Under the pieces are notes generated by a model. That model ran no database searches and had not been told where the DNA came from. It saw nothing but the letters and a program-made list of their open reading frames with translations. This document shows positions 18,164-64,000 of a stretch of 64,000 bases of DNA, in pieces. Origin of the DNA: Amoebophrya sp. A120. Lineage: Eukaryota > Protista > Dinoflagellata. Positions within the stretch are counted from its first letter, which is position 1. Every line of letters begins with the position of its first letter. Position numbers and translations under genes: made by a program. The stretch spans positions 1 through 64,000 of the forward strand of contig CAJINV010000012.1 in the NCBI GenBank assembly GCA_905178155.1, written 5' to 3'.

Positions 18164-20828
18164 ATGGCGCTTCTTTCGTCAGCCTCCACCGCTCTCGCCC
18201 CCTTCTTGTCTTCCTCTGGAAATAAAATGGCCACCACATCATCTTCAACTGCGCCTCTCGACCACACCCTCTACCTGTATTCCACGGAAAAGCCTTGCAT
18301 CGTGTTGGATTTCGGCCGCCGCTTCACAAAGATCGGACTTTCTGGCGAGTCCCGTCCGCGTTTCGTGCTCGACACACCGGAACTGTACTATCGGCCTTGG
18401 TATGCTTTGCAAATATGTGTGGGTCTGAAAAGGTGGAACTTGTGATGCTGCTTTTGAACAATCCCAACAAAATCTGTATTGCCTGGGCAGCGAGAGAAGT
18501 CTAGTTTTCGGTGCGTGGAGCATTTCTCATTCGGCATAGACATCAAGAAGCATTCAGAAAATCTGTGATGCTAGGAAATACATCACAGACGAGACGTCAC
18601 GGGCCATGTAAAATGCGCATGACATACAAGTTGCAACCTTCCAGACCCGGCACGTTTGCATCTGATACTTGGGTCAGTGAACGGGTGATCGCGACTTCCG
18701 CCTTGGACGACGGCGGGGGTGGGGGTGGAGGGGACGATAAAGTAGAGGGAGACAAACAACGTCGATCGACTTCCTCTTCATCAAAAGCAAGAGCTAGTAG
18801 CTCGTCTAGCGCTTCGAACAAGTCCATGACGCCAGCCAAGCCTCTCCGTGCCTGGATCAAACTGCTCGAACCGCTTCTGGACAAGATTTTTTTTCAGCAA
18901 TTGAAGCTGAATCCCGTGAACAAGAGAATCATTCTCTGCGAGTCCCCCTTCCTTCCCCTTCCCTTCAAATTATGAAGTGCAAAAGCATCGTGCTAGTACT
19001 AATTGCATTACAAATTACCTTAGCGCGACAAATGGAATTTGTGATGCTGTCTTACCTTGGGATGGAGATTTGTAATGCATAATTGCAATTACTACAAGCG
19101 CGATACTTTTGCACAGGATACAGATCCGCGGTTTACTACTTGTTGTTCGAAAAGTTCAAAGCGGGCAGTGTGGTCAGCGTCTGCGACTTGCTGATGCCAC
19201 TGTATTTGACGGGGACGTCGCGGAAGGAGATAGAGTTTGATGGTGGGAAAATGCCAACATCTGCTGACAATTTCCTGTCAACGACGACGCCGAATACTTT
19301 TCTTACAGGCAGTGCCCCTGCTGCCTCAGGAACAATCACAACTTCCTCTTCGTCTTCGCCATTTTCAAGTAAACCAAAGCCCGATCCGCCAGAGCAGATT
19401 GCCACCGGGATTGTGATCGACGTGGGGCATGCGAGTACCCGGATTCTCCCCGTATTTGCCGGCGTGCCACTGTTGACCGCTCTGCAGGAGATCCGATACG
19501 GAGGAGAATCGGTGACGCAGCAGTGGGAAACGATGTTGGCGAAAGCAGCAACAGAACTTCCGTCTTTGATGACAAATAGCATGACAGGCAAAACTGAGCA
19601 GGCGGAGGACTACAAGGTGAAGCTCGGGTTTTTATGAATTGCAAAAGTATCGTGCTCATAGTAATTGCAGATATGCATGACAAATTGCCTCCCAGCGTAA
19701 GCGAGCATGACAATCTGTATTTTTCATCCTGCTGGTGCTGAGCAAACTTTTTCTTTTTGTAAATGCAATTTATACTGAGTGCGAAGATTCTTTTGCGCTG
19801 CATACTCTGTCCGCTACAACAATTTCCCTCCGCCCGACACTTCGAAGCCCGTGAAAGAGAATTCGATGGAGGAAGAGAAACTTTTCAGAGAACTGCTCGG
19901 GGAGGATGGCCGTAGGTTTCTGAACAGGACTGCAGGAACAGGAATGTCTTCGCTCACAGCTGCAGCTGCAGGAGCTGATGCTGATGGCACAACTACTAGT
20001 GCCCCAACAGGAACCACGAGGACGCCACCCTTCGTCATCCCTAGCAGGGCCTCCTCCTCTTCTTCCTCCACAAGGCGCCCCTATTGCCTAAAATGTTGCC
20101 GGCCGCAAGAGAAATGCTTCAGGAACTACGAGATCTTGACCACCTCCAGTGCCGGTAGAGCAAGAACTATGTCCTCTGACGGTGATAATGATGTCAAAGT
20201 TGAGAACTTCGTCGATTCTTCCGAGGACCAGGCCGAGGACTTCGAATCTGAGCTCCTCGTCACGGCCTTTTGGAAAGCGGTTGACCTTTGCCCACTAGAC
20301 GTGAAGACGAAGGTGGTGCAGAACGTCGTCCTGTGCGGCGGACAGAGCGGCGCGATTGGGTTTTTCCCGAGACTGGCGGAGGAGCTCCAGAAATCCGTCA
20401 CAGAAGCAGTTTTGGAGCGGCAGTTTGCGAAAAAAATGGCGAAAAAAGCGTCGTCGAAAACAGGGAGGAAAGACTCGGTGGACAATAGTGCGAAAATGGG
20501 TACTGGTGAACAAATCGCTTTATCCCCAACATCGAAACAACCGAGCAAGAAACTCCTCAACCGCGGGCTCTACGACATCAAATTTGCCCGGATCGACACC
20601 GTTCCGCCACTGACCCGGATTTGGACCGGCGCGAGCTTATTTGGCTCCGTGGTCGCGGTGACATCTCAGCCGAATTTGCCGTCGTCGGGGATAGGAGCGA
20701 GTGCTGCTGGTGGCGGGAGCAGGGGGAGTGGTGTTGATGGTGGGACAAATATTCCTGGGGAGTACACGATGGAACAGTACAAAAATGGAGAACCCATACC
20801 AGATTGGTGCGTGCAAAGTTGCGCATGA
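18164..20828 (+). CDS. ACTR10: Actin-related protein, Arp10/Arp11 (dynactin) type; 4 exons split by 3 introner elements
   Basis: EKPCIVLDFGRRFTKIGLSGESRPR, KLNPVNKRIILCES, GIVIDVGHASTRILPV, NVVLCGG, IWTGASLFG; frame restored by removing each element plus 5 nt; alternative start at 18227. Confidence 0.8.
18401..18667. mobile_element. Introner family B
   Basis: TATGCTTTGCAAATATGTGTGGGTCTG...CAGACCCGGCACGTTTGCATCTGATA; direct repeat CTTGG/CTTGG. Confidence 0.9.
18971..19120. mobile_element. Introner family A
   Basis: TATGAAGTGCAAAAGCATCG...CGATACTTTTGCACAGGATA; DR CAAAT/CAGAT. Confidence 0.9.
19633..19804. mobile_element. Introner family A (diverged)
   Basis: TATGAATTGCAAAAGTATCG...CTTTTGCGCTGCATA; DR decayed (GTTTT/CTCTG) but element+5 nt restores frame. 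Confidence 0.8.
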
Positions 20829-21192
20829 TGATGATGTAGTTGATGATTCATGCTGGTCGCGAAAGGAAGGTTGTGATGGAATACAAAAGTGAGAAAAACA
20901 AGAAACACGCCTGTTCCTGTGTCTGCGGGCATCCGCTGCAGCTTCGGCCGCAAAATTCAGTGACTTGAAAGTTCGAATGTCGAATGGTCATGATGCAATC
21001 TCGCCTGCGGAAGGATCCTCATCCGAACCTGATCTTTCCTTTTTTGAGCTACTTACAGCAGCATTTATGTAAGCACGCGCACAAGTGCTGTCTACTTCAT
21101 TTTCAGTACCACGCGCTCCCGTGACGAAAAAGATCCTTCAAAAGAGAAGCTCAGGATCTAGGGTTGTAGTAGTCAGAGTCACGAAGAACAAG

Positions 21193-24100
21193 ATGAGATC
21201 TTCGCCTCCCACGAGGATGTCGCCGCTCAACAAACTCTCTTGGTTGTTTGCTTTTGCCGGCCCACCTCCGGGGATCGTGACATCTTCTTCGGCAATGTCG
21301 ATTGAGAAGCAAGTGGATTTTTTACTGAAGAAAGCGCGGACGAAAAGCACGACGCCGACGGGGGGAGCAGCTTCTTCTTCTGGCGGTGAATGCGGGGACA
21401 AAACTACTAGCGGGTCATCTCTAGTGTACGCTGATGACGCTGAAGAGTTTGAGATGGAGGTGGAAGCATCTGCTTCATCCTCATCTTCGCTTCTGTCCGG
21501 CACGACAAAACACCAGACCGCAAGAACCCACGAGTACCTGCTCCGCGAATCCGTTCCGATCGGTGGCGATTTGGAATTCGTATCGAGTGCAAATATGTCT
21601 GGGTCTGGAAGGTGGCGGCAACTTGTCATGGTAAATCTGAAGCATGCATAAATCTGTGTTGCATGAGCGTCAAAAGCTGTACACTTTTGACCAACATGGA
21701 AGGGAGTTTCTCACGCAGGATAGGCATGGCAGAGACCTCGCAGATTCTGTCATGCTAAATCACACATTCCAGATCCAGACCTCATTCGCTATGGAAAATC
21801 TGCATGACAAGTTTACACTTTTCCAGACCCAGACAATTTAATTTTTGCACTTGATAACTCGGAGTGAAAAACATCTTCGCCCTCATGCAGAGCATCCAGA
21901 AAATCTACACGGAAACAACGGCCGGATGTGAGGACATGCGGTTGGAGAGGTTGCTGAAATTACGGCTGAAAGTGAAGGACCGAGGGTTTAATTTGCACTC
22001 GAAGGTATACGACGGGACTTAGGACTACAGAGTTAAGTTGTTGTGATGATGCATCATGATTGTGTTTGTGTTGCTAAATTTGGATGAAGAACAGTGCCCT
22101 GGTGTGTGTGAAGATCTCTGTCGATGCGAAACCTGCAATACAAAGTCCGGATTCAAAATGATTTATCTATCAGGTCCTCAACCTCCGCCAGCTAGTAAGG
22201 GAGCACTACACGTTCAACAGCAAAAGCAACCCCCTCACGACATCACTTTCCGAGGAGGCGGAGAGTGACAATACAGTCTTGGACTCCTTAATCTCAACCT
22301 TCACGCTGAAAGACTGGTCGGATTTGCTCTTCGTCTACCAGAGCCGGTTTTTCTTCAGCTACTTTCGGGTTTTGTTCTTCTCGGCATTGACTTCGAAATT
22401 CTACAAAGATTTCTTCCCCGTTTCCGACAGTAAGGGACTGCAGAAGTTGGGCTTTCTCTTCCAAAAAGCAGCGGTGGAGCTGCCGAAGTACTTGACAGGA
22501 CGACAGAGAGATACTAGTGCGGAACAACAAACACATGCAGAACAACAGCATGACAGAGAGGAGTCTTCTGCTCTTGATGAAATCCAGTATCCGAAACAGA
22601 TCTCCTACTTGATCCGCGGGTGTCGGAGTTATCAGGGGTCGAAAAACGCGTTCAAGATCCTCGCGTTGGCGCCGAACCAGGGCCGAGAAGTGCTAACGGA
22701 CGCGAAATTTCAGAATCAGCGGTGCTTGAAGTACAGAAATGACGTGCTGCGGCAATTGCTGGCCGCGAAAGTGGATTTCGTCGACTACACGGCGGAAAGT
22801 AGAACGACGGGAATCTACATCGTCGAGGGGGAACAAGACCATCAGCTGAGTAATATGCGAGACGCAGAGCAAAAGCAAACTCCTCCTCCTGCTCCTTCTG
22901 TACAACACAAACAGAACTTTAACCACCTGGCTTATGAAGAAATGGACCCAACCTCATTACAAACTGGCAACGTCATCACGCATCTGGACGGGATCAAACT
23001 CGAATCCGTTGCGCACTTTCACCAGATTTTACGGCAGAGTTTGGGTGAAGAAGTTGAAGTAGTAGCTTCTTCTACATCTTCAGCCTCGCAGGAACAAGAA
23101 CTACCGTCGAACCCCAACAGTGCTTCCAACGACATCCTCATTTCTGTCGACCGGGACGAGCGTGACAAAATCCATCCTCTTCCGAAAAAAATCAGCGAGG
23201 TAGCGGGGAGTAGATGTTACGAAATGGTGTTCAAAGGTGGTAATAACGTGAAGCTGATTCAAGTAGCAATGCTGAAACTGCTCGGAGATGAGAATTTGGA
23301 AAAGTTGATGCCAGCTTCTACTTCTCGACGACAAAATTTAGATGACGTTGGAGAGGACAACCATCCCGGCTCCTCCGTGGCCGCCACTACAACAACTTTC
23401 CAAAGCAGCGTTAAAAAAAAGCCAACCATCTACAGCCTTGTCGATCCGAAACCATCCAACCTGAAGGAGTCCGTGAACCAGTTGAAACAGAAATATCTCC
23501 CGACTGACTGGTCCGACTTGGATTTTTCCGTGAACATTGACAGGGTGAGACCGGAATGCGCTGTTTTCCGCTCTGATACAATCCACCGGATTGTGATGGA
23601 AAAAATTTCCGAGAAATTATTCCACGGGTTGATTGAGCTGTTGACAATGGACGAGGAGATGCTGGCTTTTGGGCAGGAGGTGAAGCACTGGATTCTTGAA
23701 CGGGAGAAAGATCTGGGGACTTTTTTGAATGAGATGGTTCTTGAGGAGAAGGAAAAAGTGGAGAAAATTCTGGATTTTGTGGTCAAAAAGGAAAAAATGC
23801 GGGAAAATTTCTTTTTCGAAAAAGACCCAGTGGTAGCGCGGGCGGTCGCACGACGAGCGGGAACAAGGTGGGAGGAAGATGCGAGTTCGAGTGAGGACAC
23901 AGCAGAGGAAGACGAGGACGACGAGGACTTGAGTCGCGTTGTGCTGCAGCCAAGCCCAACTGAGCAAGATGTGGACAACAACCTCAGCTCTGCTTCTTCC
24001 ACCTCATCCGCGGGGATTGGCAACGCAACTCTCTGGTCGCCGAACTCGAAGATCGAAGCAGCGGGTGACGATGTTGACGAACTTTCCTTGAACAGCACAT

Positions 24101-27100
24101 CAGCACGACAAAATCGAAAAGCTGATGTTGGGTCAAAGACCCGAGGGCGGTCCAGATCTGCGTCCCGGAAGAAGAAGAAAAAGGGCCTTGTCATCAAACC
24201 CTCCTCCAGTGCGAAACAAATAGCGAGCAGCAGAAGTAGAAGCAAAACTTCTTCTAAAACAAGAACTTATTCCTCCGGCGCATTACACACGCATCACCAA
24301 GGCGGTTCGGATTGGTTTGAGAATCATGCAAATCTACTTCGGGAGCTGTATCCTGAGTAAAAACGTACCCACACCAGAGTCAGGATAGGGATTTTGCAAC
24401 ACAAACCTAGGAGTTTTGTGAGTCACGCATGACAAGTTGCACTCTGCAGTGTAGTGCAGGTTAGCACGTCCAGCCGCATCACAGATTCATCTGCTCATCC
24501 TGTTCACAGCATCACAAATTCCAAAACACGATTGGAAATGGCTCTCATGGGAGTGCGCGTTACAAGTCTTCCTGTCTTGCAAATCTGCATTACAACTCTG
24601 GTGTGGGTACGCTTTTCCTCAGGATAGGCTGCTCCGAAAGTTCAAGATCACCGGTGTTGTGCCCTCAGAAAGCCGGCCTATGAACTGCAAAAGTATCGTA
24701 CTAGTAGTAATTGCAATACAAATTAGCTCAGCATGACAAATGGAGTTTGTCATGCTGTTTTGCCTTGGGATGAAGATTTGTAATGCATGATTGTGATTTT
24801 TACTACGAGTGCGATACTTTTGCACGGGATACGGCCCTTCATCGTGCAACTTCCGGAGGCGGTTTCGGTAGAGGGAAAGTTTTTTGATGAAAAAACGAGC
24901 GGTGTAGTAGGAGTTGCTGATATTGCACCAACGCCAACGTCCTCTACATCTGCGTCCTCTTGTGCTACGGGAGGACGTGCTGCTACCCCTGCTCCGCCAG
25001 TCCTCGGTAAAGGAAAAGGGGGCGGCGCAACACTGATCGAAAATAAAACTACGCTTGATCATCCTGCGACTTCATTTTGCAGTGGCGGAAAGGGATCCGG
25101 GAAGGGATCCTCCTCAGCTGTGTTGCGAAAAGGGAAGGGACCGAGTACTTGTGCTGCTGCGAGCAGCTACCAAAATTTCGTGATGGCGGCGCAACAGAAA
25201 GAGTGGCAAGAAATTCAGGAAGTAGTGCAATCGGTCACCCCGCCGGCCCCCGCGGCGTCTTCTTCATCGTCTTGTCAAAGTCGAATCCGAAGCAGCAGCT
25301 TGGGGAAGAAGGGAAAAGGTGGCTCTTTCCAGTACGACAACTCGAAAACAAACACCGGAAAAGGCAAACTCCTCGCAACACTTCTTGCTGCGTCAAACAC
25401 TTCTGGCGCTGGTCGGAATAAAGGGAAAAACTGCAACATGGTGGATGGCGCAGCTGGCTCATCGGCCGATCCAATTTTGAATGCGCACGGGCGAAGTTAC
25501 AGTGGGGGTGTTTGCAGCGGCGGTCCACCAGGAGCCCCGCAGCGTTTTCTAGACCACAATCATACAACGGGAAATGACGAGGACTCAGAGTTGTGCAGTG
25601 ACGAGGAGCAGGAGGAAATTCCAAACCTTCTCCAACCCACCACTCGTCTTCTTTCCTCAACACCGGATCATCTTCAGGATTCCCACAGCGACCCCGATAA
25701 TTTGGTTTTGGATCTGTCATGCGAGGACAAAGCTGCGCACCAAGTAGACCACGAACCGGAACAGCCGAAGATGAAGGTGATCACCTCAACGCGGTTTCAG
25801 CCTTCCTTCCTTCGTGCCCGGATGATCCTATGGGAGCGTCAGGATCGAAATCGGTAAAGTTGAAAAACAAAAATTTGTGATGCATAAAACCGATACCAGT
25901 TGGAAGCCCAATTTCCAAGCGGCGCATGACAAATTTTGGCACCATCTGAATCCAGTTTGTCACGCTGTTTGGGGAAAGAAGGCGTCTTTTGTCATGCTAC
26001 TGTAGCAGCTCTATCGCAGACCCCAAACAGGCTAACAGTCGGCCTCACTTGCCATCCGTGCAAGAGAGGCGCCCCATGCCCTGCAATTTATGCATGAGAA
26101 GTCGTTTCAACTTTGTCGATTTCGATCGAGCCACCTCCATAGATCCGGGGGATTGGGTACGCGGACTCGCGGGTGTTGGACGAGAAGGGGTTGCTTATCA
26201 AATGCAAATATGTCTGGGTCTGGACTAAACTTGTGATGCTAAAATGTGGATGATGGAAACAGTTCCGAATGCAATCCAGCATGACAACTTTTCAGAACGC
26301 TTTCTCATAGGCAATCCGCATGTTGAGAAGCCGGGTTTTTGCATGTACAAAAGAGGCTGCGACTTTTGTTGGTTATGCAATAGTACAGATTTTCTAGGTA
26401 TGGAAAGCTAGCATTACAAGTTCCAACCATCCAGACCCCGACACATTTGCAATCCATATTGCTGTGGTTCGACTTACTCCGTGGCATGATCGACGTGAGG
26501 ATCAAAGCACCCCTTTTGGAAAAAATCGATCCGTTTTACGAGCGGTTTTTGGCCAAGGGGATTGAGATCTACGACTTTAGCCACCACACCAGCGTGGATT
26601 TCGACGCGCAGACCTTTGAGCCAGCGTACCGATTGGCGGAAATGACCCTGAGGTTGCCGAAGTTTGACGTCGTTGACACAGACACTTCTTCATGTGGAAA
26701 AGTAAAAGCGCCTTTGTCTCAGTCTCGACGACCAGAAGATGACGACGACTCCTCTGCGGAGGACGACCAACGAGGACAGTGTGACGATGCGCTGCAGACG
26801 AGTAGATCACCTTCGTCATCTCGGTCAGTGTCTTTAACCAACTCGTCCCGCTCCTATTCACCGTCCCAGTCCGCCTCACCGGCCCTGTTGATGCGACGCG
26901 CAGAACAACACTCGCGAGTTGGGGAAAGAAGCAGCATCAAAGGCTCGACGACTCTATCGAGGACTAGAAGAACTTCTAGGCGCAAGCTTAGGCGGCGTGG
27001 CACCAGCAGAGGATCTTCATCTTCTAAGCGTGGACATCATCATCAAGCGGACTTGTTCGAAGGCGACACGCGAGTGGATGTTGAGCAGCTGCCCCTTGTC

Positions 27101-31392: not shown

Positions 31393-32277
31393 ATGTCGTC
31401 CGACAACATGAAAACGATCTTCGAGTCACGTTTCACTATCGCAAACACCTCTTTGCATTCCGTCGTAGCCTTCCACCAAAATGACGTCGTCGCGGCGTTT
31501 CCGCAACTCGCCCCACCCCTCACGCCGGTGGAATTCGAACCTCCCCTCGTGCACAAAATGGAAGAAAACGCTCTGTTGAAGTTCACGCTCTGGATCGGTT
31601 ACTGTCTCCTCCCCGTGCGCTGGGTGGCGAGGCATTTCGAAGTTTCGGAGAACGGGTTCACGGACGAGGTGGTGAGAGGGCCCGTGAAATACTGGAGACA
31701 CCGGCACGCGTTTCGGGTGGTGGATAAAGTTGGTAGCGGACAGCGGGGAGATCCGTCAGTTCCAATTGCTCCTTCATCCGCACGCGCATCACAAATCGTG
31801 GAAGTGCACGACAAGATTGAGTACGAGCATTTTCTATGAAATGTAAAGATGTCTGGGTCTGGTGGAAGAATGCAACTTGTGATGCTGAATTTGCATTCCA
31901 GAAAAATCTGTATTGCATGAGCAGCAAAGGGAATGCAATTTTTGCTACGCGGAGAGGGCATTTGTCATGCGGAATAGGCATCGCGAAGCCCTCAAAAAAC
32001 CTGCGTTGCTAGGGCATGCATCACAGACATCATGGCCAATGCAAAACATGCATGACAGGTCTCAGAATCTTCCAGACCCAGACACTTTTACACTTGATAT
32101 TTTCCGTTGCTCTCCTACGAGGGAATTGTGGGAAGGTTGCTGATCAACAGAGTGAGCCTGTTCATGCTGTTCAAGTGGCGCGGGTATGCGACGAGACGGG
32201 CGATTTTAGACGTTGAAGGAGATATTCACCACGGAAATGAATCAGCACTGGAGAAGCCGTTGCTTGCGAAGAAGTGA
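31393..32277 (+). CDS. SRPBCC (START-like/polyketide cyclase) family protein, 2 exons
   Basis: FTDEVVRGPVKYWRHRHAF, HDKIEYEHF|PLLSYEGIVGRLL...MLFKWRGYATR after removing 31835-32099. Confidence 0.7.
31835..32099. mobile_element. Introner family B
   Basis: TATGAAATGTAAAGATGTCTGGGTCTGG...CCAGACCCAGACACTTTTACACTTGATA; DR TTTTC/TTTTC. Confidence 0.92.
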
Positions 32278-52586: not shown

Positions 52587-52589
52587 AAT

Positions 52590-55140: not shown

Positions 55141-55346
55141 ATCGTGGGTGAAAAAATTCAGACGAGTTCCATTTTCATCCTTTCTGTGATGTCGAATGTC
55201 GTTCGGGTTTTATCTTATGTGTTCTGTGTGTCCGTCGATAGAACAGCTTGGGTCGTGGCGAAAAGTCACATGATGGAGCCATTAGAGGAGCACCTCCATC
55301 ACCACCATCTAAGAAATCATCAGAAATAGAAGACCCTTGTATCAAT

Positions 55347-57316
55347 CTATCGTCGTCTGTTGTGTCGCCGGGAATCGTCCTCTTGCCGTTTGTTCTTGTC
55401 CCGTCGTCCGCCTCGATCGTCTCTCGAGTTGTGTCCCCTGTTATTTCCCCGGCTCCGGCTTCTGCTTCGACCACGCCCGCCACCGCGATGTTCTCTCTCC
55501 ACATCTCGGCGAGATTTTTTATCATTCCCCCGGCTGTCGTTCCTGCCGCCATGATCCCGTCCAGACCGATGCTTCGTTCCACGGCCCGCACCACTACTTC
55601 GCCGACTATCTACACTGCTGTCGCTTCGGTTATTCACCACATCAGAAGATTCACTGCGTTCCCTGCGGCGGTCGTTCGTAGTTTTTTTCTCATTTGTGTT
55701 CTTGTTCAGCTGGTGCTGGCCGCGCTTCTTTGCAGTTCTACCACGTTGATTATCTACGGATGAGTCCGAGTCGTCGTAGTTCTCCGCCGAGCTGTCTTCA
55801 TCCGAGGAATTCTCCGAATCACTATTACAGCGTTTAATTTTAATACTTTTTCCAGTATTATCTTTTTTCATCTTCCCCCGCTGTTCCTCCTCCCAAATTT
55901 CCCCGTGTAAACTGTACAACTTGAACTGTTCGGATTGTAAAAAAGACGCCTGTTTCGCCGAGAAATACTTCACGTTGCGCAGAAGTTTCAGCAAGATCGC
56001 CTTCTCCTGCGGCTCGTTGCAGTTTTGCAGGAAAGAGCGGTGGACGACGATGTGGTAGAAGGCATCCTGCAGGTTCAACCGGTCTAAACTCGCGAGTTTC
56101 AAACACTTGTCAATCCACTTGATCTATGCAGTGCACAAGTATCGCACTAGTACGTAGAAATCGCATGACAAATCCCCCCAGCATGAGAAATGGAATTTGT
56201 AATGCGGATTTTGTTAGGTTAAGAAGGAGATTTGTAATGCATGACTGCGATAATTACTACGACTGCGATACTTTTGCACAGGATATGATCCGCGCGCCCG
56301 GCGTCTTCGCGTACACTTCCTCCGCGTCCATGGTCACCTGCGGAAGGTTGTTCTATCCTTTGCAAAAGCGTCCCCACCCCAGAGTTCTCATGCAAATACG
56401 CATGCCAAAAAAGTTTCTCATGCGGAGCGCCATGAGAGGCACTTTCTAGCTGTGTTGTGGGATTTGTGATGCTATAATCAGCATGATGTGCTAGATCTGT
56501 GATGCTTCTGAACTACCTAAACAGAATCACACTACGAGGAAAAATCTGTCATGCGAAACAACCAAAGCTGGCTGATTTGTCTAGCAAATTTCCCATCTTG
56601 ACTCTGGTGTGGGGACGTTTTTACTCGGGATATGTTCAGCTCTTTATTCATCTTCTTGTCCTGATCCGGATTTTTGTTACTCCGGGTAACGGCCTCGGTG
56701 CCGATCGGGATATCTTTCCTATCGAATGCAATAATATGTCTGGAGGTGGTTCTCTGGAACAAGTAGGGTGCAAAGCTAGCATGCAAGGTGGTTTCTTGTT
56801 GTCGTATAATAATGGCCCATACAGATTATTTTTGGCATACAGGGTCTAACATGACAGATTCTGCATTGTGCAGATCTGTATCATGCTTCTCGTCCGGCAT
56901 GAGAAACTGCCAGCACTGGACAACTTTTGCTAATCATGCAACACAGATTTATTTTGCATCAGATCCAGACGTCGACCCAGACGACCTTTTTGCATTTGAT
57001 ACTTCCGGTTCCGAAACCATTGGGTCCGGGCCGCCTGCGCCAGGGCGGCGTTGTAGTGGATGGAAGATATGGCGTTCTCAACTGTTACATTCTCAAGCGT
57101 TGCATGATCTGTCATGCAGAATTGCCTTGACTATCGACGCCATCAAGCCGCTTCGCATGACAAATTCTCAGACGGCCAAACAGGCTGAGAATCTGCGCCA
57201 AATCTGTCATGCAAGACGCGCAAGGTCCTTCCTTTCACTTTTGCCACTGTTGCATCGCAAATGCATGCAACAGCTGAGAATGTAATAATTGAGAACACCA
57301 TAGAAGAGGAAGACAT
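55347..57316 (-). CDS. Hypothetical protein with Arg/Ser/Asp-rich (RS-like) C-terminus, 5 exons
   Basis: MSSSS|IHYNAALAQ...RNRK|DIPIG...KELN|NLPQ...ARI|KWIDKCLKLASLD...RGRSRSRSRG; 4 introners removed. Confidence 0.75.
56125..56285. mobile_element. Introner family A
   Basis: TATGCAGTGCACAAGTATCGC...GCGATACTTTTGCACAGGATA; DR TGATC/TGATC. Confidence 0.92.
56354..56632. mobile_element. Introner family H
   Basis: TATCCTTTGCAAAAGCGTCCCCACCCCAGAG...CTCTGGTGTGGGGACGTTTTTACTCGGGATA; DR TGTTC/TGTTC. Confidence 0.92.
56720..57001. mobile_element. Introner family B
   Basis: TATCGAATGCAA...TTGCATTTGATA; DR TTTCC/CTTCC. Confidence 0.88.
57068..57302. mobile_element. Introner family D
   Basis: TATGGCGTTCTCAACTGTTACAT...ATGTAATAATTGAGAACACCATA; DR GAAGA/GAAGA. 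Confidence 0.92.
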
Positions 57317-59097
57317 TTTGTTTTTGTTGTTTATGAAGCTTTTAAACATCAAGCGGGGATTCTTGTTGGAGCTTGTGTCAAGGTGACAGTGACAGACTGA
57401 AAATAGAGCAAACAAATAGGAAATGACGTGACCTTGTAGATGAAGCCCCTATCACCACAAATGAAAAAAGCTCACTCTCATCGCCACTTCTTTTTCGTAA
57501 TACTAATATTTCTACTACTCGGTCGCTGCTTGAAGTAAGGAGTCAGATCAGATCAGATAGTTTTATAGCATAGCATGGGGTTTGGCGTGTCGGAACTTTA
57601 AGAGTGCAGCCGACTTTTTCATGAACTAGAGCTCGACCACGCGTACTATTCTAGTAGAGGCGGCTAACAGTGATGCTTGTACCCCGCCCGCGATACAAAT
57701 TCCCCGGGCCGTATATCATGCCTATTGGGTGGGACTGGGAATTTCGGCCACTGAACAAAACCCGACAAGCACACCGAAAGTCTTATACCGGTCGATGCTA
57801 AAGCTTCACGCGCCGCAACCAGAGCACCGGCTGATTACCCTAAACCCTGTTTAAGTTATCAAGCACTTACTTTTTACTATTCGTCTAATACAAGTTCCCA
57901 TTTGCATGCATCTACACCTCGGCCTGGATCATTTTGATCTTTTTCTTTTCGTTTTTTTTTTATGTACCCTGAACCCCTCCATCAAACTTCCCATGTACGT
58001 GCAAATTGCCCGGCCCACACGGACGCTTCTTTTCCCTAGTGGGAATATACTCGTGTACTGGTGGGGACAGCCCGCTGCGCACTGGACTCGCCGATGGGAA
58101 TTTACGATCTAGTTGTTTTTTGTTTTTCGTACGAAAACTTTTTGATCTACTTGAACTGCAGTACTGTAACGCTATGTATAAAAAAGAATTTTTACCACCT
58201 TCTTGGTTTTTTTGGCCGAGGTGTCTAAGGCGCTACTAGTGCCACTGATCCGCACAGTGGGCTTCCGCGCTACGAATATTTGTAGGTCGTCGAAGGTGGG
58301 CGCTACGCGGAATGTACTACACGAAGGTTTTGGCTTGGCTTGGCTGCGGGCGAGTGGCGAGTTGCGGGGCGGAGTTCCAGAACTTTTTTGTAAATACTCA
58401 TAAAGAGTAAGTTTACAAATGCTCGCTCGAAAGCGGCGGTAGGGACGTTGTGTAACTAGAAAAAAGCGATAAGGGAAAAAAATAAAAAGGCTTTTGCGCT
58501 TGCTTTTTGACTTTGGCCTGGGTCGCTCGCACGCATGCGATGATCTGGTAGAATGTGTTGAAGAAAGTAGAGAAAAAAAAAGTAAAGAGCAACCGCTTTA
58601 TTTCCATCATACGGACGGGACTACACTTGTTTAGAAAAATGTGGATCTTGTCAACGGCATCAACATATTTTTTTTTATTTGCAATGAAAACTAAAACTCA
58701 GCTGGTATGCAGTTGGACTTAGACACGTCGGGGGCATTTTTCGGTCTTCGGTTTGCGAAGAGGAAGAGGTGGTCGTTTGCATCAACGATTATATTTCTCA
58801 GCATTGGAAGATAATTTTTTTTCTTGAGTGAGAGATGGAACTACAGTCGGTTTCTTGTCAAGACGAAAGTCGGGCGATGGCGTCCTCCACCATCTCAGAG
58901 TAGCAGTCAGAGGACAGCCAACACCCAGACAATGATCATCCTGATCATGATTCCTGAGTCTCGGATTGGAAATCGCAGTAGCAGATTCTTCAGATTTTTG
59001 CTTGCTCACTTTCTCATATTTCAAAATCTGTCGCGTGGATTTGAAGTCAAGCAATGAATGAGATCAGCAAGAACTACTTCAACAGCTTCGTCTATCT

Positions 59098-61854
59098 TTA
59101 GGTTGATGATGTGAAGGTTTTCATCATGAGTTCCTCTCGAAATTGAAAATATTCCTGCTCAACAAAACTTTGCGCTCGAACTAGAACATCCTCCATAAGG
59201 TCGGGGGTGAGAAACAAATCACTGCTCTTCATTTTCTGCCGCCCGCTCGCGCTTGCAGCTTGTTCAACATCGAGCGTCTTTAATAGCCAATGCACCGCCC
59301 GCATCGGATTGTCGACAAAATCTTCATTTAATATCACGTCACCTGCGTGTTGTTGCGTGGGATCATGAAGATGTTGCTGATCCCCACCAGCATCTCCGAA
59401 GTCCACAATGTCACCGTTCAAAATCAGCTGGAAATACGGGCCACAGGCGGGTGGGTAGGTGGCGAAAAAGTTGTACGACTCATCCTCTTCTTGCACCAGC
59501 TGTTCCGGCGACGCGACACCTCCTCCAGGCGTGTAGTTTATTCGAGTAGATGTCTTTCGCGGAGAAGTCGTTCTTTCCTGTTCGTCTGTCAAATCATATC
59601 CGTGCAGTGCTGCGGGTTTTTTAACCGCCGTCGAGAGTTGGTTTGTATGGTCAGCAGGCTGCTCGTCAACAACGTCTCTACTTGAACTTTGTGCTGCGTT
59701 TAGCTGTAGAAAATTTGCACCCCCCGGGGTTATGTCGAGGGAGATGAACTTGAGAAAATTTTTTGGTCGCGGAGGTTCTTTTGCTCCTGGTCCTGCTTCT
59801 GTCGTTTTGTTATTGTTGTCGTAGTGATTGTTCTGTGTCGTGGTCGTGGAGCGGTTGTTAAAAGTGTTCTGGTGCGACGAGGCTTCTAGTGCTATCACTT
59901 CGCTGACAATTCGGGCCAGGTTCTCCATAAGAAACCCCGCCAGCGAAGAGCGGAAGTTTGTCTTCGCATCGGAGGTCTTCAATAAGACCAAGCTGGCTTG
60001 ACGCCCGTGGACGGAGTTTTCGTATGCGCTGCAAATGAGTAGTCTGGTGGTGTTTTGCAACAAACATGGGGCGCTAGATTGTGAAGGGTGCGCCTGTGTG
60101 CGCTGCAGTGCTACGCAGCCAAGCATGACAAGCTTTTCAACACCTATGCTTTTCGTTGTCCGCATGGCAAGAAACATCAGAAGGCTCCTCCTTTCCTCCC
60201 TTATGCATCTTCACAGTGTTAAGCTCAAGGGCGGCCATGATGCGAGACAAGCATGACAAACTTGCTGCAATAAATTTCCACACCCGGTGGACTACAAAGT
60301 TGCATTTGATATTTCGATCACGTCGACCATCTCAGGCACCGTGATCTCGCGGACGTAGCCAGTGTCGACCTTCGCGTTAGCAGTTGGAATATGCCTTGCA
60401 GAAGTATCGCACATCGAGAACTCATTCATTTTCTTAGGGTGACCAATCCGCATTACAACACAAATTTCGTATCTCACGCGCAGGAAATTTGTAATTCTAT
60501 TTCTATTTCTAGAGCGATACTTTTGCACAGGATATGCCACTGTTCCAGGTGCCGTCGACGCGGATGAGAAAGCTTTCTTCTCCGTGCCGGTACTTGAAAG
60601 TGCATCTGTAGTTGTTGTACTAGTACCCATTTGATTCATCATCTCCGTGGTCGCGCCGGCGTTGCTTCTCTCCCCTTGCGCCAGAAGTTTTTGTTTCTTC
60701 TTTTCCTCCACAAAGGCAAAGACCGCAAAAGGCGTGGCTGCCAACGTGAAAAACCCGAGCCAGGGCAGAACTGCGAATAGCTTCTGCCACTTCCTTTGTT
60801 CCATCAAATGCAAACATGTCTGGGTCTGGACAAGTGGAAGTGCAAGGCCTGTTATGCATATTTATTCCCATCAAGTAGACCCATGATGTCTGTGATGCTT
60901 GCCGTAGCATCACAGCTTGTGCTGGCGCGACGGCCTTCTGAGTCTGATGCTCATACCGCATGAGAAATACCCTCTCCGCGCAACGAAGACTGGAGCTCTT
61001 TATTTGCTGCTCAACATGCAATACAGATTTTATGTAGAGTCCAAAGATACTAGCATCACAAGTTGCAGCACCTTTCCAGACCGAGACATACTTGCAGCTG
61101 ATATCTTCCGGCAGCAGCCGACTTTCGTCGATGAGGAAAGTTGTTTTATCGGGGTTCGTATGAAGTGCAAATATGTCTGGGTCTGGAAGATTGTCATGCA
61201 CGTTTTGCATGAGCCATGATGTCTGTGACGCATGCCCTAGCATCACAGTTTTTTCTAGGGCTTCTTGATGCCTATTCCGCATGACAAATGCCCTCGCCTT
61301 GTAGCAACAGTTACATTTCCTTTGCTGCTCATGCAATACAGAATCTTCTTGGAATCCAAATGCAGCATCGCAAATCCCATTCTTTCCAGACCCAGACACA
61401 TTTGCAAGGCATAGTTCGCACTGTACCGGGTTTTCAGAAAGGCCTCGATAGAGCAGGTGCCTTTATCGCCGAAGGGGGTCACGGCGGTAGAGGAGTGGTG
61501 ATGCAGAAGCTCTTCTTGCCGTTTTTCAAGGTCATTCGCGGCCAATACAATTTTTCTCCCCACATCAACTTGGTCCAGGGGAAGCACCCGCTTCTCGCTG
61601 TTCTGGAAGGTGTTGTTGTTGGTAGAAGTTCTGCTGATGTCAAAATCGTCGAGATCTTCTCGTGTAGCGGAGGTGCGGATAGTAGTTTCACCTGGTGGCG
61701 GAGCCGACTCTGCTACAGGTGCGGCGATGGTGGAACGCTGGCGGAGTTGCAGCCGCTTGCTGTAGTGCCACTCGGTGAGCAACACTCTCGGTATCAAAGC
61801 CGTCCTGCAACCACAGCAGCTCGTCCTCCCGCGGAGGAGAGACACTGAGAGCAT
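59098..61854 (-). CDS. Hypothetical single-pass membrane protein, possibly mitochondrion-targeted; 5 exons
   Basis: Arg-rich N-terminus MLSVSLLRGRTS...; TM LFAVLPWLGFFTLAATPFAVFAFV; frame restored across 4 introners. Confidence 0.7.
60023..60311. mobile_element. Introner family B-like (diverged)
   Basis: TATGCGCTGCAAATG...GTTGCATTTGATA; DR TTTCG/TTTCG. Confidence 0.85.
60390..60534. mobile_element. Introner family A (diverged DR)
   Basis: TATGCCTTGCAGAAGTATCGC...GCGATACTTTTGCACAGGATA; DR TGGAA/TGCCA. Confidence 0.85.
60802..61103. mobile_element. Introner family B (CAT left end)
   Basis: CATCAAATGCAAACATGTCTGGGTCTGGA...AGACATACTTGCAGCTGATA; DR TGTTC/TCTTC. Confidence 0.88.
61159..61413. 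mobile_element. Introner family B
   Basis: TATGAAGTGCAAATATGTCTGGGTCTGGAA...TTCCAGACCCAGACACATTTGCAAGGCATA; DR GTTCG/GTTCG. Confidence 0.93.
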
Positions 61855-62443
61855 TCTTCTTTTCTTTTGCAGCTCGAAAAAAAAAAAGTTTTTGCGAAGT
61901 TTTCATTACTACTTGTAGTAGTACTGAAAAGACATAGAATTCTGCTGTGAAAATAAAGACAAAATGCTTTGTACGACATCAGAAGAGAAACACACTGTGC
62001 TTTTGCTTTTGGCACAACTGCGAAACCGAATGCAAAAGAAGTAGAAACAAGCAACAAGAAACAAGATCTACTATGCTTGAATGTTCACTACACACACAAA
62101 GATACTTAAAAAGTACGACCAGACCTCCTTCGTGACATCACGTTCAACACACCGGAGAATTTTCTAGATCAAAATCTTTAAAAGTGAAAAAAAAGAGGAA
62201 CATCACCCTCCCGGGTGCTCAAGTACTGAGCACGTTCAGCAGCGTGTGGTCCTCGACACTTCAACTTCTCCTTGCGTGAGGCGTCAAAGCTGAACACTTG
62301 CGAGTGGTTATGGTTTAGTACTGTATAATGAGGTGCTCTGGACGAGGCATGAACTGAGCCCAACAAGAACAAGTGTTTCAGCTTTCGGCCTCGCATAGTA
62401 CTTTCTCCTGCATATCAATTTTACATTTACACACAGCCACAGT

Positions 62444-64000
62444 TCACATCTTCGACTTGTGAAACAAAATTTTCCGTTCTTTCTCCCCAAGCGATGAAGT
62501 GTAGTTTACACTATCCTTACTGTCCCTCAGTTTCTGCATGTCCCGTGCCTCCTTCTCCATCACCTTCAGAGCCTGCACTACCGTATTGAGAGGAAAAATC
62601 CCCCCTCCCCATATTGAAAGCGCTTTCGTCTGAAAATTTGTGATGCAGATTTGAGGTCACAAATCCTGTCTGTCTTGCAAGAAGGCAAAGCCAGAGAGTC
62701 CGCCGCATTATGCCGGCGGTTTGTGATGCTGTTGGGCTTACAGAGCCGACATCTGTCAATGTCATGCTAATCCCCTCATCAAAACCTCTCGACCCAGGCT
62801 TGGCATATGCCTGCAGTCCTCTCCAGCAAGACAGACCTGATTTGTGTACGCAAATCCAGCATCAGAAACTTCGTTTCGATATGGGGAGGGGGGATTTTTC
62901 CCTTTGATATACCGCCGGTCGCTGTTTAATTTTCTCGTACCACGCGTCTGCGTAAATCAGGCCGCAATCTTTCAAAGACCTATTCTGCTTTTCAAACCGC
63001 TTCCAGGGCTTGACCCAGGGCCACGCCGCCCTATTATCTATAGGAAAAATATTAAACTCCTGTCGATCTTCACTTGTGTAAGTAGCTGCTGTTTTTATTT
63101 GGTGGAGTGATAGCATATGCTGTTGAGTTCTTGTACATCATCTCTGCATTACAGAGCACATGCACAAAGCCTCTAGTGTACAAGTTAGTAGCACGGAACG
63201 ACGATGAAAACGTACACACATGAAGCCGAGAGGTGGACTTCGTGGTGGTCGTCTGGCATGACAAGTTGTGATAAACTTGTTTTAGTACATACTGGTCCTG
63301 CAACATCTTCACAGACTTACACTAATACAGAGTTCTTTTTTTCTTGCATACATATCCGCGATGGTATACTTGTCGCCGGCGAGAAAACCGGACGTCCTTA
63401 TGCACTGCAAAAGTATAATCGTACTCGTAGTGGTGGCGATAAATATGCGAAGACAAATCTCCTTCTCTAGGTAAATCCGCATGACAGGTTCCATTTGCTA
63501 TACTGAGGAAATTTGTCATGCGATGTATACGTAGGTGTAGCGCGATGCTTTTGCAGGGCATATTCCTCTCGACCCGCTTATCCAGAACGTGAAGCAATAT
63601 CGCAAGAAAAAAGTGTTACAGTTACGCATTGCGTTGCAACACCGGCAACACAGATAACCTTTCTCATGCAGGAAGTGCTTGCGAGCCTCGTTTCCTACGT
63701 ATTTTACCTTATGATCTTCGCATCACAAGTTATGCCTGCCACACAGGGAAAATTTGTGTTGCAGAAACTCCAACAAATGTGTAACTGTAGCACTTTTTTC
63801 TCGTGATAAGCAAGCGGGAATACTCAGTTGTACGCGCACGCGCAAGGCCGTATTCTGTAATATTACTGCAAGCCGCAGCAGCAGCAGCAGCACGAAGGCG
63901 GGATGGATCTGTTTCTTTTGCCTCGCATGTTGGCTGTTCATCCCCGCCATCAGTTGTCCTGGGCGGTGGAGCCGCGGTCAGCTATGAAGTGCAAAAGTAT
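62444..64000 (-). CDS. Glutathione S-transferase C-terminal part, YfcG/YghU/Ure2-like; 5' part beyond the window
   Basis: EYSRLL|HVLDKRVER|TSGFLAGDKYTIADM|AAWPWV...WYEKIKQRPAV|VQAL...LGEKERKILF; 3 complete introners plus GT-AG intron 63351-63031. Confidence 0.85.
62584..62909. mobile_element. Introner family E
   Basis: TATTGAGAGGAAAAATCCCCCCTCCCCATAT...ATATGGGGAGGGGGGATTTTTCCCTTTGATA; DR TACCG/TACCG. Confidence 0.93.
63399..63562. mobile_element. Introner family A
   Basis: TATGCACTGCAAAAG...CTTTTGCAGGGCATA; DR GTCCT/TTCCT. Confidence 0.9.
63598..63808. mobile_element. Introner family I
   Basis: TATCGCAAGAAAAAAGTGTTACAGTTAC...GTAACTGTAGCACTTTTTTCTCGTGATA; DR AGCAA/AGCAA. Confidence 0.92.
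63983..64000. mobile_element. Introner family A, truncated by window end
   Basis: TATGAAGTGCAAAAGTAT, the family A terminus. Confidence 0.75.

Follow-up and report, generated by a model that had tools for sequence, protein, structure and literature searches.

Non-canonical introns supported by RNA-seq have been reported from the Amoebophrya sp. A120 genome by Farhat et al. 2021 (PMC7789003). Their inverted repeats begin with TAT, the direct repeats measure 3-5 nt and, according to a figure legend, the splice sites are variable relative to the hairpin. In a word search of the main text of that study, nothing turned up on how the elements are oriented, nor on branch points or lariats. Gozashti et al. 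2025 (PMC12130899) list 58 introner families for A120, among them an integrase-like family without Ginger termini.

The host is a marine parasite, Amoebophrya strain A120; dozens of short hairpin inserts resembling transposons break up its genes. The window analysed here is the whole stretch of 64,000 nt, and its exon pieces match NCBI proteins labelled Amoebophrya sp. A120 at 100% identity. The inserts are almost certainly the introner elements of Farhat et al. 2021 (PMC7789003), where the insert system of this genome is already described. An earlier, sequence-only reading had pointed to Amoebophrya; this link is closer than that reading knew, since the DNA belongs to the published A120 genome. 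Our analysis adds the fixed 5-nt repeat, the fit of element plus 5 nt to orthologues, the use of both orientations, a single cut register that fits four database proteins and the constrained terminal triplets.

Elements and host genes

Between positions 18401 and 63808 we counted 45 complete elements, spread over 11 genes (Table 1). Forty-four of them, 109-326 nt long, are bounded by TAT...ATA (CAT...ATA in one case, as read on the plus strand), and one of 1040 nt has the ends TTA...TAA. The sole changed terminal base is that of element 60802 (TAT...ATG). The flanking 5-nt repeat is perfect in 32, matches at 4/5 in 11, and at 3/5 and 2/5 in one each. From 55 scan candidates 41 were retained (40 in this range and one at 13209), and 14 were removed as alternative or inner end pairs overlapping retained elements or as motif-free AT-rich matches (52.8-54.8 kb; 58187). 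The 1040-nt element was taken from an unbiased scan and four further elements were added by eye from a motif map. Beyond position 8700 the unbiased scan delivered 31 TAT-starting matches versus 1, 0 and 0 in three shuffles. In the candidate scan 38 matches combined perfect ends with a repeat matching at 4/5 or better; five shuffles gave 0 each. The recount bears out the 45 elements, 32 perfect repeats and 11 genes claimed earlier. Element 38402 sits within the GT-AG intron 38399-38668, so that 44 of the 45 are exonic.

Table 1. Host genes and elements in the window. Repeat, flanking 5-nt direct repeat; "position n" names the repeat position taken from the given copy.
Feature	Position	Strand	Remarks
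Element	13209..13432	+	TAT...ATA; repeat 3/5; unnamed gene, outside range of sequence-only reading
Host gene 1, actin-family	18164..20828	+	3 elements; = A120 protein P0005 (686 aa)
Element, family B	18401..18667	+	repeat CTTGG perfect
Element, family A	18971..19120	+	repeat CAAAT/CAGAT; position 3 from 5' copy
Element, family A	19633..19804	+	repeat 2/5 GTTTT/CTCTG; position 3 from 5' copy, position 5 from 3' copy
Host gene 2	21193..28774	+	7 elements; = A120 protein P0004 (1790 aa)
Host gene 2, GT-AG introns	22005-22173, 28117-28316	+	
Element, family B	21581..21856	+	repeat 4/5; position 2 from 5' copy
Element, family D	24349..24626	+	repeat 4/5; position 1 from 5' copy; one register would permit GC-AG
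Element, family A	24679..24831	+	perfect repeat
Element, family C	25829..26141	+	perfect repeat
Element	26196..26458	+	perfect repeat
Element	27264..27549	+	perfect repeat
Element, family E	28415..28650	+	repeat AAACT; no canonical register
Host gene 3	31393..32277	+	205 codons with stop; 1 element
Element, family B	31835..32099	+	repeat TTTTC; no canonical register
Host gene 4, metallophosphoesterase	32961..36643	+	4 elements
Host gene 4, inferred GT-AG introns	34626-34797, 35241-35384, 35989-36116	+	
1040-nt element	33452..34491	+	TTA...TAA; repeat TTTAC; GC-rich interior and inner palindrome; interrupts GDFVDRG
Element, family C	34865..35169	+	perfect repeat
Element	35652..35939	+	repeat ACACG/CCACG
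Element, family C	36180..36487	+	orientation opposite to 25829
Host gene 5, lipase class 3	37505..40189	+	3 exonic elements; GT-AG intron 38399-38668; = A120 protein P0001 (590 aa)
Element, family D	37993..38299	+	exonic; repeat 4/5; +5 fits two orthologues
Element, family A	38402..38524	+	in GT-AG intron, adjoins donor; 5' arm mostly lost; terminal pairing probability 0.01
Element, family A	38920..39077	+	repeat TGGCG/TGGTG; position 4 from 5' copy = Arg, likewise Arg in A25 orthologue
Element, family A	39459..39620	+	interrupts NDPVP; orientation opposite to 24679
Host gene 6	44338..46381	+	3 elements
Element, family C	44568..44868	+	perfect repeat
Element, family A	45504..45660	+	+5 fits orthologue P0003
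Element	45783..45895	+	repeat GGGTG; orthologue P0003 favours +5 over GT-AG +2 alternative
Host gene 7	46999..49656	+	6 elements; inferred GT-AG intron 48645-48801
Element, family A	47041..47196	+	perfect repeat
Element, family B	47306..47571	+	orientation opposite to 31835
Element, family B	47639..47900	+	+5 fits orthologue P0003
Element, family A	47996..48162	+	+5 fits orthologue P0003
Element, related to 62584	48277..48587	+	perfect repeat
Element, 109 nt	49391..49499	+	+5 fits orthologue P0003
Host gene 8	50289..52586	+	6 elements
Element, family B	50675..50941	+	repeat 4/5
Element, family A	51006..51240	+	inner 22-nt tandem expansion
Element, family A	51347..51495	+	perfect repeat
Element	51541..51749	+	perfect repeat
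Element, family A	51864..52021	+	next element (52028) 6 nt away
Element	52028..52272	+	repeat CGGCG/CAGCG, overlaps repeat of element 51864
Host gene 9	55347..57320	-	start uncertain; 4 elements
Element, family A	56125..56285	-	on transcript, orientation opposite to 24679
Element, family D	56354..56632	-	perfect repeat
Element	56720..57001	-	repeat 4/5
Element, family E	57068..57302	-	on transcript, orientation opposite to 28415
Host gene 10	59098..61854	-	4 elements; = protein P0006 (581 aa)
Element	60023..60311	-	perfect repeat
Element, family A	60390..60534	-	repeat 3/5; transcript-5' copy kept at both mismatched positions (residue Ala)
Element, family B	60802..61103	-	transcript ends TAT...ATG; position 4 from transcript-5' copy
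Element, family B	61159..61413	-	perfect repeat
Host gene 11, 3' part	62444..64000	-	3 complete elements; inferred GT-AG intron 63031-63351
Element, 326 nt	62584..62909	-	perfect repeat
Element, family A	63399..63562	-	repeat 4/5
Element	63598..63808	-	perfect repeat
Start of further family A-like element	63983..64000	-	cut by window end

In a second assembly with 379 elements the repeat is perfect at 5 nt in 245 and at 6 nt in 1. A fixed 5-nt repeat fits a transposition footprint, and its length is best read as the target-site duplication of a transposase. No Pfam match was obtained for the 1040-nt element, and no partner transposase or coding element for the inserts was found in the window.

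Exactness of removal

All 11 genes are open after removal of element plus 5 nt and, where present, of GT-AG introns, and the motifs GDFVDRG, VVGHTP, NDPVP and GST-type are rebuilt as claimed. The motifs of host gene 11 we take to be GST-type; the piece tested gave no Pfam match. In the GHT motif at element 35652, the His presumably depends on position 1 being taken from the 5' copy. The claim of a restored frame stands for every gene, but frame alone sets the extra length only modulo 3. As a weak test, read-through of 46 elements was obtained for 44 at +5 and +8, for 43 at +2 and for 38 at 0, +3, +4 and +6. Because of this modulo-3 limit the exact value is set by orthologues: +5 gave the best score, gap-free, at 8/8 junctions with a non-A120 orthologue. 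At these junctions the sequence comparison demonstrates removal of exactly element plus 5 nt.

The same alignments bear on the possibility that the usual spliceosome cuts at cryptic GT-AG sites close to the elements, with small in-frame scars left behind. A frame-preserving GT...AG pair does lie near the ends of 24/45 elements, four have a canonical pair in exact register (24349 GC-AG, 38402 GT-AG, 56354 AT-AC, 60802 AT-AC), and family A carries its CAG close to one end. However, 21/45 lack a frame-preserving pair, families are used in both orientations and the orthologue junctions accept a scar-free join. Cryptic site use, which the sequence-only reading had named as evidence against itself, is largely refuted by these data, and we rate it as very improbable. 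The accompanying claim that no canonical register exists is correct for the examples it named, AAACT (28415), TTTTC (31835) and TTTAC (33452); the four elements above do have one.

Hairpins with short flanking repeats are a setting for template-switch artefacts, so that dead genes, or elements retained in mRNA with junctions produced by reverse-transcriptase template switches, have to be considered. The open genes with intact conserved motifs speak against this, as do the removed lengths, which span all three phases (14, 20 and 12 of 46). In the second assembly 44/78 of the mismatches between repeat copies are at third codon positions (p 3e-5), an enrichment from which we conclude that the host genes are under purifying selection. 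By our own reasoning the 3' copy of the repeat would be retained in template switching, yet mostly the 5' copy is kept. We consider this explanation, too, hardly credible.

Register of the cut

Database proteins derive from transcript-to-genome alignment, and the register was read from these proteins. Of six registers tested, only the one keeping 4 nt from the 5' copy gives all four database proteins at full length (17 junctions), its 3' bound being set by a single junction, element 19633. For a minus-strand gene two residues were predicted before the protein was looked at, and both were correct. The kept copy tracks transcript direction on both strands. At intron +1, -2 and -1 the window elements favour no particular base. 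Judged from these proteins, the inserts are likely cut from RNA in a single register, N/TAT...ATA-NNNN/ (slashes marking the cuts), set by transcript direction; removal at the RNA level in a fixed or dominant 4/1 register is, in our opinion, probable. Of the fixed 5-nt stagger proposed earlier, the removal of element plus 5 nt stands, but the RNA cut would be asymmetric, 1 nt before and 4 nt after the element, with the 5 nt better assigned to transposition. Elements 51864 and 52028 are 6 nt apart and would therefore enclose a 1-nt exon.

Skipping at the level of DNA or transcription, by programmed DNA excision or by a polymerase jump over the extruded hairpin via the 5-nt repeat, agrees with the DNA-transposon structure of terminal inverted repeats plus target duplication and with the lack of an RNA-specific G-U signal, and a jump would likewise keep the 5' copy. 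Simple DNA excision, however, does not predict a kept copy that tracks transcript direction, and removal is exact even where the repeat copies agree at just 2/5 or 3/5, contrary to homology-guided jumping. The junctions of Farhat et al. (PMC7789003) are moreover RNA reads against intact genomic DNA. We regard such skipping as improbable.

Terminal triplets are constrained (1 mismatch in 132 pairs versus 18/220 repeat positions, p 0.002); the inner stem is not detectably so, and its positions 8-14 (32/308 mismatches) drift like the repeat. The proposal that a machinery reads a terminal hairpin with TAT/ATA ends holds for the triplets, but selection on an RNA-level hairpin was tested and none was detected: G-U shows no excess over A-C on the transcript strand (44 vs 37; second count 62 vs 75). 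Terminal pairing is predicted at a probability of at least 0.5 in 42/45 elements; for the exonic element 37993 the terminal stem is not predicted to form. Members of a family are found in either orientation, and removal therefore cannot depend on a strand-specific branch site or pyrimidine tract. Asymmetric elements are more often TATG-first (75 vs 44, p 0.006), almost wholly by family A (67 vs 37); the excess favours the spliceosomal mechanism proposed below but could also be an insertion bias. Family A carries CAG four bases inside one end.

Proposed mechanism

The best mechanism in our view, held with about even confidence, is removal by a spliceosome variant working without U1. A transposase encoded elsewhere would insert the elements with a 5-bp stagger. 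Removal from RNA would follow transcript direction, as the kept copy does, with the intron N-TAT...ATA-NNNN. The stem, taking over from U1 and U2AF, would bring the two ends close to each other. The N/UAU end might be read as a host G/UAY donor with looser demands on +1, and measurement from the invariant AUA, not from an AG, would set the 3' junction. Since the inferred cut lies one base before TAT, U would stand at +2 and the end would resemble host GTAY donors; the TTA-ended element likewise has U at +2. Nine window introns (three pinned by database proteins, six inferred) have GTA donors in 9/9 and GTAY in 8/9 cases. Their acceptors have A at -5 in 7/9, which would match ATA of the inserts, but this was not replicated in a noisy ab initio set (9/31 vs 129/456 background). 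The freedom at +1, -2 and -1 and the lack of a strand-specific branch site or pyrimidine tract count against a spliceosome, and we know of no spliceosomal intron class as relaxed at these positions. U1 is reported in a canonical-intron Amoebophrya and was not found in A25 or A120 in the published search (Farhat 2021, PMC7789003). Fritillaria offers a precedent for a spliceosomal route to transposon-derived non-canonical introns (PMC13326754; PMC11282704).

A spliceosome-independent route appears possible, though we incline against it: a nuclease would bind the TAT/ATA helix base, cut 1 nt before and 4 nt after, and an RtcB-type ligase would join the exons. Such a route would amount to SOS splicing made precise and would have arisen convergently with the nonconventional introns of Euglena. 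It agrees with the orientation independence, the unbiased bases at +1, -1 and -2 and the predicted terminal pairing. The geometry is like the rule tested in Euglena, N3-CDG...CHG-N5-6, with a 3' overhang longer by 2-3 nt there and by 3 nt in A120; euglenid nonconventional introns leave as circles without lariats, as reviewed in PMC11282704, and SOS splicing shows that pairing of inverted terminal repeats can trigger excision with RTCB (PMC12779559). SOS splicing is nevertheless imprecise and tolerates scrambled repeats (PMC12779559), against exact removal and constrained triplets in A120, and the nuclease leaves the register match to GTAY donors and the reported U1 loss unexplained. An excision system alongside the spliceosome, as first proposed, is therefore upheld in its coexistence with GT-AG introns but not in its separateness, since an altered spliceosome would account for the register equally well or better. 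The data do support non-GT-AG introns that stem from transposons and are taken out with single-base precision next to ordinary GT-AG introns.

Comparison with known systems

MITEs, non-autonomous TIR transposons, have, when moved by integrase-type transposases (Ginger-, Tn7-, Mu-like ends), duplications of about 5 bp and TGT...ACA ends. The inserts share with MITE-type transposons the fixed 5-nt duplication, terminal inverted repeats, absence of coding capacity and internal motifs repeated in both orientations, whereas their ends are TAT...ATA.

The introners of Farhat 2021 (PMC7789003) come from the same organism and agree in inverted repeats from TAT, As further in, short direct repeats, many families, no internal transposase and GT-AG introns alongside. 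Repeats in that study measure 3-5 nt and its splice sites vary, against a fixed 5 nt, one fitting register and both orientations in our data; the legend of Fig S23 ('1-5' nucleotides) possibly depicts this register already. In 21 of the 58 A120 rows of Gozashti 2025 (PMC12130899) the elements are mostly TIR DNA elements of unknown superfamily with similar lengths and, as in the window, largely non-canonical annotated ends. The automated duplication lengths of 2-5 nt differ from the fixed 5 nt, and one A120 family has integrase-like ORFs, whereas the window has no such coding element.

Euglena nonconventional introns are also MITE-like, TIR-paired, non-GT-AG and coexistent with GT-AG introns (PMC12501133; PMC11282704), with fixed offsets from a paired triplet and a longer 3' overhang (PMC12501133). 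They differ by CDG/CHG, by offsets of 3 and 5-6 and by the purine that follows the 3' junction (PMC12501133), against TAT/ATA, 1 and 4 and no base preference in A120. Excised circles are shown there (PMC12501133; PMC11282704). In SOS splicing (AKAP17A, CAAP1, RTCB; PMC12779559) TIR transposons likewise leave mRNA without GU-AG, linked to their inverted repeats, but indels remain, while in A120 removal is exact and terminal triplets are conserved. The non-canonical introns of Fritillaria borealis share the transposon origin and are handled by an evolved major spliceosome (PMC13326754; PMC11282704). There U1 is kept, U2AF is duplicated and intron ends are still biased (PMC13326754), whereas A120 reportedly lacks U1 and the terminal dinucleotides of its inserts are, apart from U at +2, unconstrained.

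Elements and their host genes

The exon pieces match NCBI proteins of Amoebophrya sp. A120 with 100% identity, so that the link to Amoebophrya introner elements drawn in the sequence-only reading holds for A120 itself. According to the available text of Farhat et al. 2021 (PMC7789003), more than 60% of the RNA-supported introns of this strain are non-canonical and a subset of introns carries inverted repeats starting with TAT and direct repeats of 3-5 nt. The available part of Gozashti et al. 2025 (PMC12130899) gives 58 introner families for A120, one of them integrase-like. On the strength of the strain identity and of these two reports, what we found is a published system, rediscovered independently in its type genome. 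The discovery of the elements is not new; the added value lies in sharp rules that make the question of mechanism testable.

An unbiased search for terminal inverted repeats flanked by a 5-nt repeat yielded 31 matches that start with TAT, against 0-1 in three shuffles, and a looser scan gave 38 perfect-end matches against 0 in five shuffles. From 55 candidates, 14 were dropped and five were added; the scans favoured elements with intact ends. The recount confirmed 45 complete elements in 18401..64000, 32 of them with a perfect 5-nt repeat, as had been claimed (the others agree at 4/5 positions in 11 cases, 3/5 in one and 2/5 in one). A further element at 13209, outside the range covered before, raises the total to 46. 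That the reported splice junctions are artefacts fits the data poorly and is very improbable.

All 46 elements lie inside the drawn gene spans, which make up 39% of the non-element DNA and leave out any genes that the first 17 kb may contain. When the 11 host genes were opened, each interruption that had to be removed was such an element or a GT-AG intron, which upholds the claim that these genes are split by inverted-repeat elements. Since the removed lengths span all three phases (14, 20 and 12 of the 46), the elements are incompatible with a working mRNA if they are kept. The elements at 51864 and 52028 are spaced by 6 nt, which leaves a 1-nt exon between them; elements are therefore probably removed singly, without exon definition.

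Target-site duplication and transposon origin

Scanning metagenome contigs for the pattern gave 132 loci, all from one assembly and none orthologous to any window gene. A search ignoring the repeat detected 379 TAT...ATA elements in this second assembly, where full-length relatives reach 94% identity; as a control, the first 30 loci held 137 elements against 10 in shuffles. The repeat was perfect at 5 nt in 245 of the 379, had at most one mismatch in 325, and was perfect at 6 nt in a single case. Judged from these sequences, it behaves as a fixed target-site duplication, in line with the DNA-transposon signature that had been recognized in the terminal repeats and duplications. The host strand was called for 230 of 339 elements tried, by a caller that was correct for 42 of 45 elements in the window, where it overlaps with its training. 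Among the strand-called elements, 44 of 78 repeat mismatches fall at third codon positions, which marks the hosts as live genes and speaks against the pseudogene decay that had been named as a refuting finding. No stop-codon-informative mismatch was found among 67 imperfect repeats, and no consistent GC-to-AT direction separates the two repeat copies.

Terminal inverted repeats, a fixed-length duplication and no coding capacity found are features of MITEs or non-autonomous TIR transposons. A transposase supplied in trans and cutting with a 5-bp stagger would carry out the insertion. Candidate binding sites of such an enzyme may be the GCAT(G/C/T)AC-type motifs, of which 135 lie inside the 42 elements then listed and 41 elsewhere, several of the latter falling in elements added later. 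Pfam gave no match in 7 frames of the 1040-nt element, and a search for a transposase-like frame in 12 frames of the long element and the GC-rich patches was likewise negative. The available text of Farhat et al. 2021 (PMC7789003) reports no cognate transposase in A120. The family B end pattern was absent from the viral contigs searched.

The window holds seven multi-member families. Relative to the transcript, 22 of 32 family-assigned elements lie in the same and 8 in the opposite direction (2 unclear); in the second assembly the numbers are 98 and 68 of 166 assigned, 'same' being defined against an arbitrary reference member. As families sit in both directions and the two ends mirror each other on the transcript strand, a strand-specific internal signal cannot be required for removal. 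Family A accounts for nearly all of a 5'-end bias in favour of TATG (75 vs 44). Orientation by chromosome strand was also considered and rejected.

Exactness of removal and cut register

Frame alone determines the extra length removed only modulo 3, and read-through of ORFs was barely discriminating as a test for deletion of the element plus 5 nt (+5). An orthologue from strain A25 (P0002) and a fused orthologous gene model (P0003) cover eight junctions in genes 5-7. At all eight, +5 outscores -1, +2, +8 and +11 and the alignment is gap-free, as expected from the proposed fixed removal of 5 nt with each element. GT-AG removal of the element plus 2 nt, using G at repeat positions 1 and 5, was rejected: there is no enrichment, and +5 is better at 45783.

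Where the repeat copies differ, the product reveals which copy was retained. Read along the transcript, the 5' copy supplies position 1 at element 24349, position 2 at 21581, position 3 at two elements (18971 and 19633) and position 4 at two others (38920 and 60802), and it is retained across positions 2-3 at 60390. At 19633 it is the 3' copy that contributes position 5, and this junction is the sole one bounding the register on the 3' side. The full lengths of the database proteins of genes 5, 2, 1 and 10 (P0001, P0004, P0005 and P0006; 17 junctions) are reproduced by only one of six registers, in which four bases of the 5' copy are kept. For gene 10, on the minus strand, two residues were predicted before its protein was read, and both matched. 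Database proteins of A120 derive from transcript alignments, and P0006 is presumed to be of A120 origin. The predicted intron is N-TAT...ATA-NNNN, cut 1 nt before and 4 nt after the element, with the 3' side set by 19633 alone; Fig. S23 of Farhat et al. (PMC7789003) may already show this register. Since the retained copy follows the direction of the transcript, the data point to removal at the RNA level; excision from DNA or skipping by the polymerase fits poorly and is unlikely.

In the second-assembly loci, mismatches at position 5 are synonymous in 9 of 10 cases, whereas at positions 1-4 the figure is 30 of 68 (p 0.014); one reading would be wobble between two registers. In Table S4 of Farhat et al., all nine top A120 pairs start with NT and eight of nine end with AN. 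We do not count this as independent support, because an NT...AN pattern is expected from aligner sliding.

Conserved ends and folding

Conservation was analyzed in the 44 exonic TAT elements of the window. TAT stands at 44 of 44 transcript 5' ends, and A occupies positions 11-13 in 35-40 of 44. In the exonic elements, the terminal triplets show one mismatch in 132 pairs, a U-G wobble at the 3' end, as against 18/220 in the repeat, 32/308 at stem positions 8-14 and 80/176 at positions 4-7. The constraint on the triplets agrees with the suggestion that the TAT/ATA ends are read. Pairing of the termini is predicted for 42 of 45 elements. A strong structural requirement is argued against by the lack of a G-U over A-C strand asymmetry, both in the window and in the 230 strand-called elements, and by exonic element 37993, whose ends are not predicted to pair. 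Folding energy did not differ between sense and antisense (p 0.28), and 19633 folds no better than its shuffles (z -0.84). Element 38402, located within a GT-AG intron, lacks most of one arm and serves as a single natural control.

Removal machinery

A canonical pair is available in some exact register in 4 of 45 elements, and a frame-preserving GT...AG nearby is absent in 21 of 45; use of cryptic sites fits poorly and has very little probability. Taking any exact register, GT/GC-AG ends occur in 2 of 45 elements, one being the intronic copy, and AT-AC ends in 2 of 45, about chance level. For the three elements that the sequence-only reading named as examples (28415, 31835 and 33452), the absence of a canonical pair from every register holds. 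In the predicted register, GT/GC-AG is found in none of the elements. Self-splicing group I or II introns or another Rfam RNA were rejected: the window has no Rfam match, and the elements measure 109-326 nt and occur in both orientations.

The reading we favour, at about even probability, is a U1-independent spliceosome. The predicted register, which was derived independently, places U at +2, and its N-TAT matches the GTAY donors of the host. Donors begin with GTA in 9/9 and with GTAY in 8/9 window introns, only three of which are pinned by proteins. The weakly paired positions 4-7 would keep such a donor-like end accessible. U1 is missing, according to the available text of Farhat et al. 2021 (PMC7789003), from two strains with these introns and is reported present in a canonical strain. 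Against a spliceosome count the freedom of +1, -2 and -1 from base preference, the lack of an evident branch site, and an A at -5 of host acceptors, matching ATA, that failed to replicate in the ab initio set. Learning the host splice sites ab initio proved too noisy: a first set of 246 calls lacked a consensus, and a second set of 79 calls, contaminated by missed elements, had A at +3 32 times and C/T at +4 51 times. Window GT-AG introns (128-321 nt) have mostly A-rich acceptors without a clear pyrimidine tract.

A nuclease-ligase route is a possible, less probable alternative. Here the base of the TAT/ATA hairpin would serve as a ruler on either strand, with cuts 1 nt upstream and 4 nt downstream of it, and the original exon would be restored exactly. 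The offset geometry resembles that of the nonconventional introns of Euglena, which yield circular products, and SOS splicing provides a precedent, weakened by being imprecise and independent of sequence. The earlier proposal of an excision machinery is partly supported: the ends are constrained and the element plus 5 nt is removed exactly, while the donor-like register with U at +2 fits an altered spliceosome at least as well as a machinery separate from it.

Other features of the window and loci

Coordinates of further features in the window and the second-assembly loci (L numbers)
Position	Feature	Observation
1355-1608	Long hairpin	Near-perfect; 109-nt arms, 95% complementary; part found again in L016
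4639-8662	Tandem array	About 30 copies of a 132-nt unit, 97% alike; inner inverted repeat in every unit; array open throughout in some frames
~16800-17600, 29200-30800, 33600-34400, 40800-43200	GC-rich patches	63-72% GC; mutually dissimilar
33452-34491	Long element	Starts with TTA and two purines, though in A120; same 5-nt repeat
35241-35384, 35989-36116	Predicted GT-AG introns	Internal motifs of the elements, without TAT/ATA ends
38390-38399, 38660-38669	Flanks of gene 5 GT-AG intron	9-nt direct repeat
43500-44250	Intergenic repeat, ~740 nt	TAT start; degenerate inverted copy of start near far end
52600-53400, 54300-55200	AT-rich stretches	Down to 29% GC; either side of one segment
~53420, 54270	Segment between AT-rich stretches	Short inverted subterminal repeats
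53654	Same segment	13-nt tandem
L013 1352-2499	GC-rich patch	Similar to those of the window; inside family D element
L038 3503-4223	Copy of ~740-nt repeat	81% identical
L068 58-586	Element, 529 nt	Perfect 5-nt repeat; extra internal sequence
L072 1297-1921	Element, 625 nt	Perfect 5-nt repeat; extra internal sequence

TTA followed by two purines is the end motif of strain A25 in the available text of Farhat et al. 2021 (PMC7789003); the TTA-ended element has no relative among the 132 loci. As the L068 and L072 elements carry extra internal sequence, element length seems free. None of the frames tested in the GC-rich patches matched Pfam; as a similar patch sits within a family D element, the patches may be inserts of a kind of their own. 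The segment between the AT-rich stretches is possibly another decayed mobile element, and the two introns with internal motifs are possibly decayed elements. P0003 joins the orthologues of genes 5, 6 and 7 in unchanged order, an indication that gene order is conserved and that this gene model is a merged one.

Implications and comparison with known systems

The rules comprise a fixed duplication of 5 nt, either orientation, cuts 1 nt ahead of the element and 4 nt behind it, terminal triplets that are invariant, and terminal dinucleotides that are free. They make the open question of removal testable and give a simple aid to gene annotation in this lineage. Farhat et al. 2021 (PMC7789003) likewise leave the splicing mechanism open, as had been presumed, and report in the available text that neither U1 nor the minor spliceosome was detected in A120; searches of the openly accessible literature listed no paper that resolves the mechanism. 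If the spliceosome is responsible, its active site is indifferent to the base at +1, -2 and -1 when the ends are brought together by structure. If it is not, precise hairpin-guided excision could be used to insert removable cassettes at any coding position. A nuclease-ligase would represent a third precise nuclear splicing chemistry, in A120, independent of the similar geometry in Euglena, and would render every insertion of these transposons harmless.

With U2-type introns the elements share U at +2 and, in a small host sample, donor-like +3/+4, but not GT/GC-AG ends. They differ from U12-type introns in having no AT-AC beyond chance, and minor snRNAs are reported absent in the available text of PMC7789003. 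Paired ITRs in an exon are common to SOS splicing, which depends on AKAP17A, CAAP1 and RTCB, and the elements (pairing predicted in 42/45), whereas SOS excision is imprecise and the joins are exact and the terminal triplets constrained here. Euglenid introns follow N3-CDG...CHG-N5-6 and then a purine, in contrast to N-TAT...ATA-N4, where no base is preferred beyond the junction. Published A120 introners have repeats of 3-5 nt, compared with 5 nt in our elements (perfect in 32/45, and in 245/379 of the second assembly); their inverted repeat of TAT, about seven looser bases and a run of A is shared by the TAT elements of the window.
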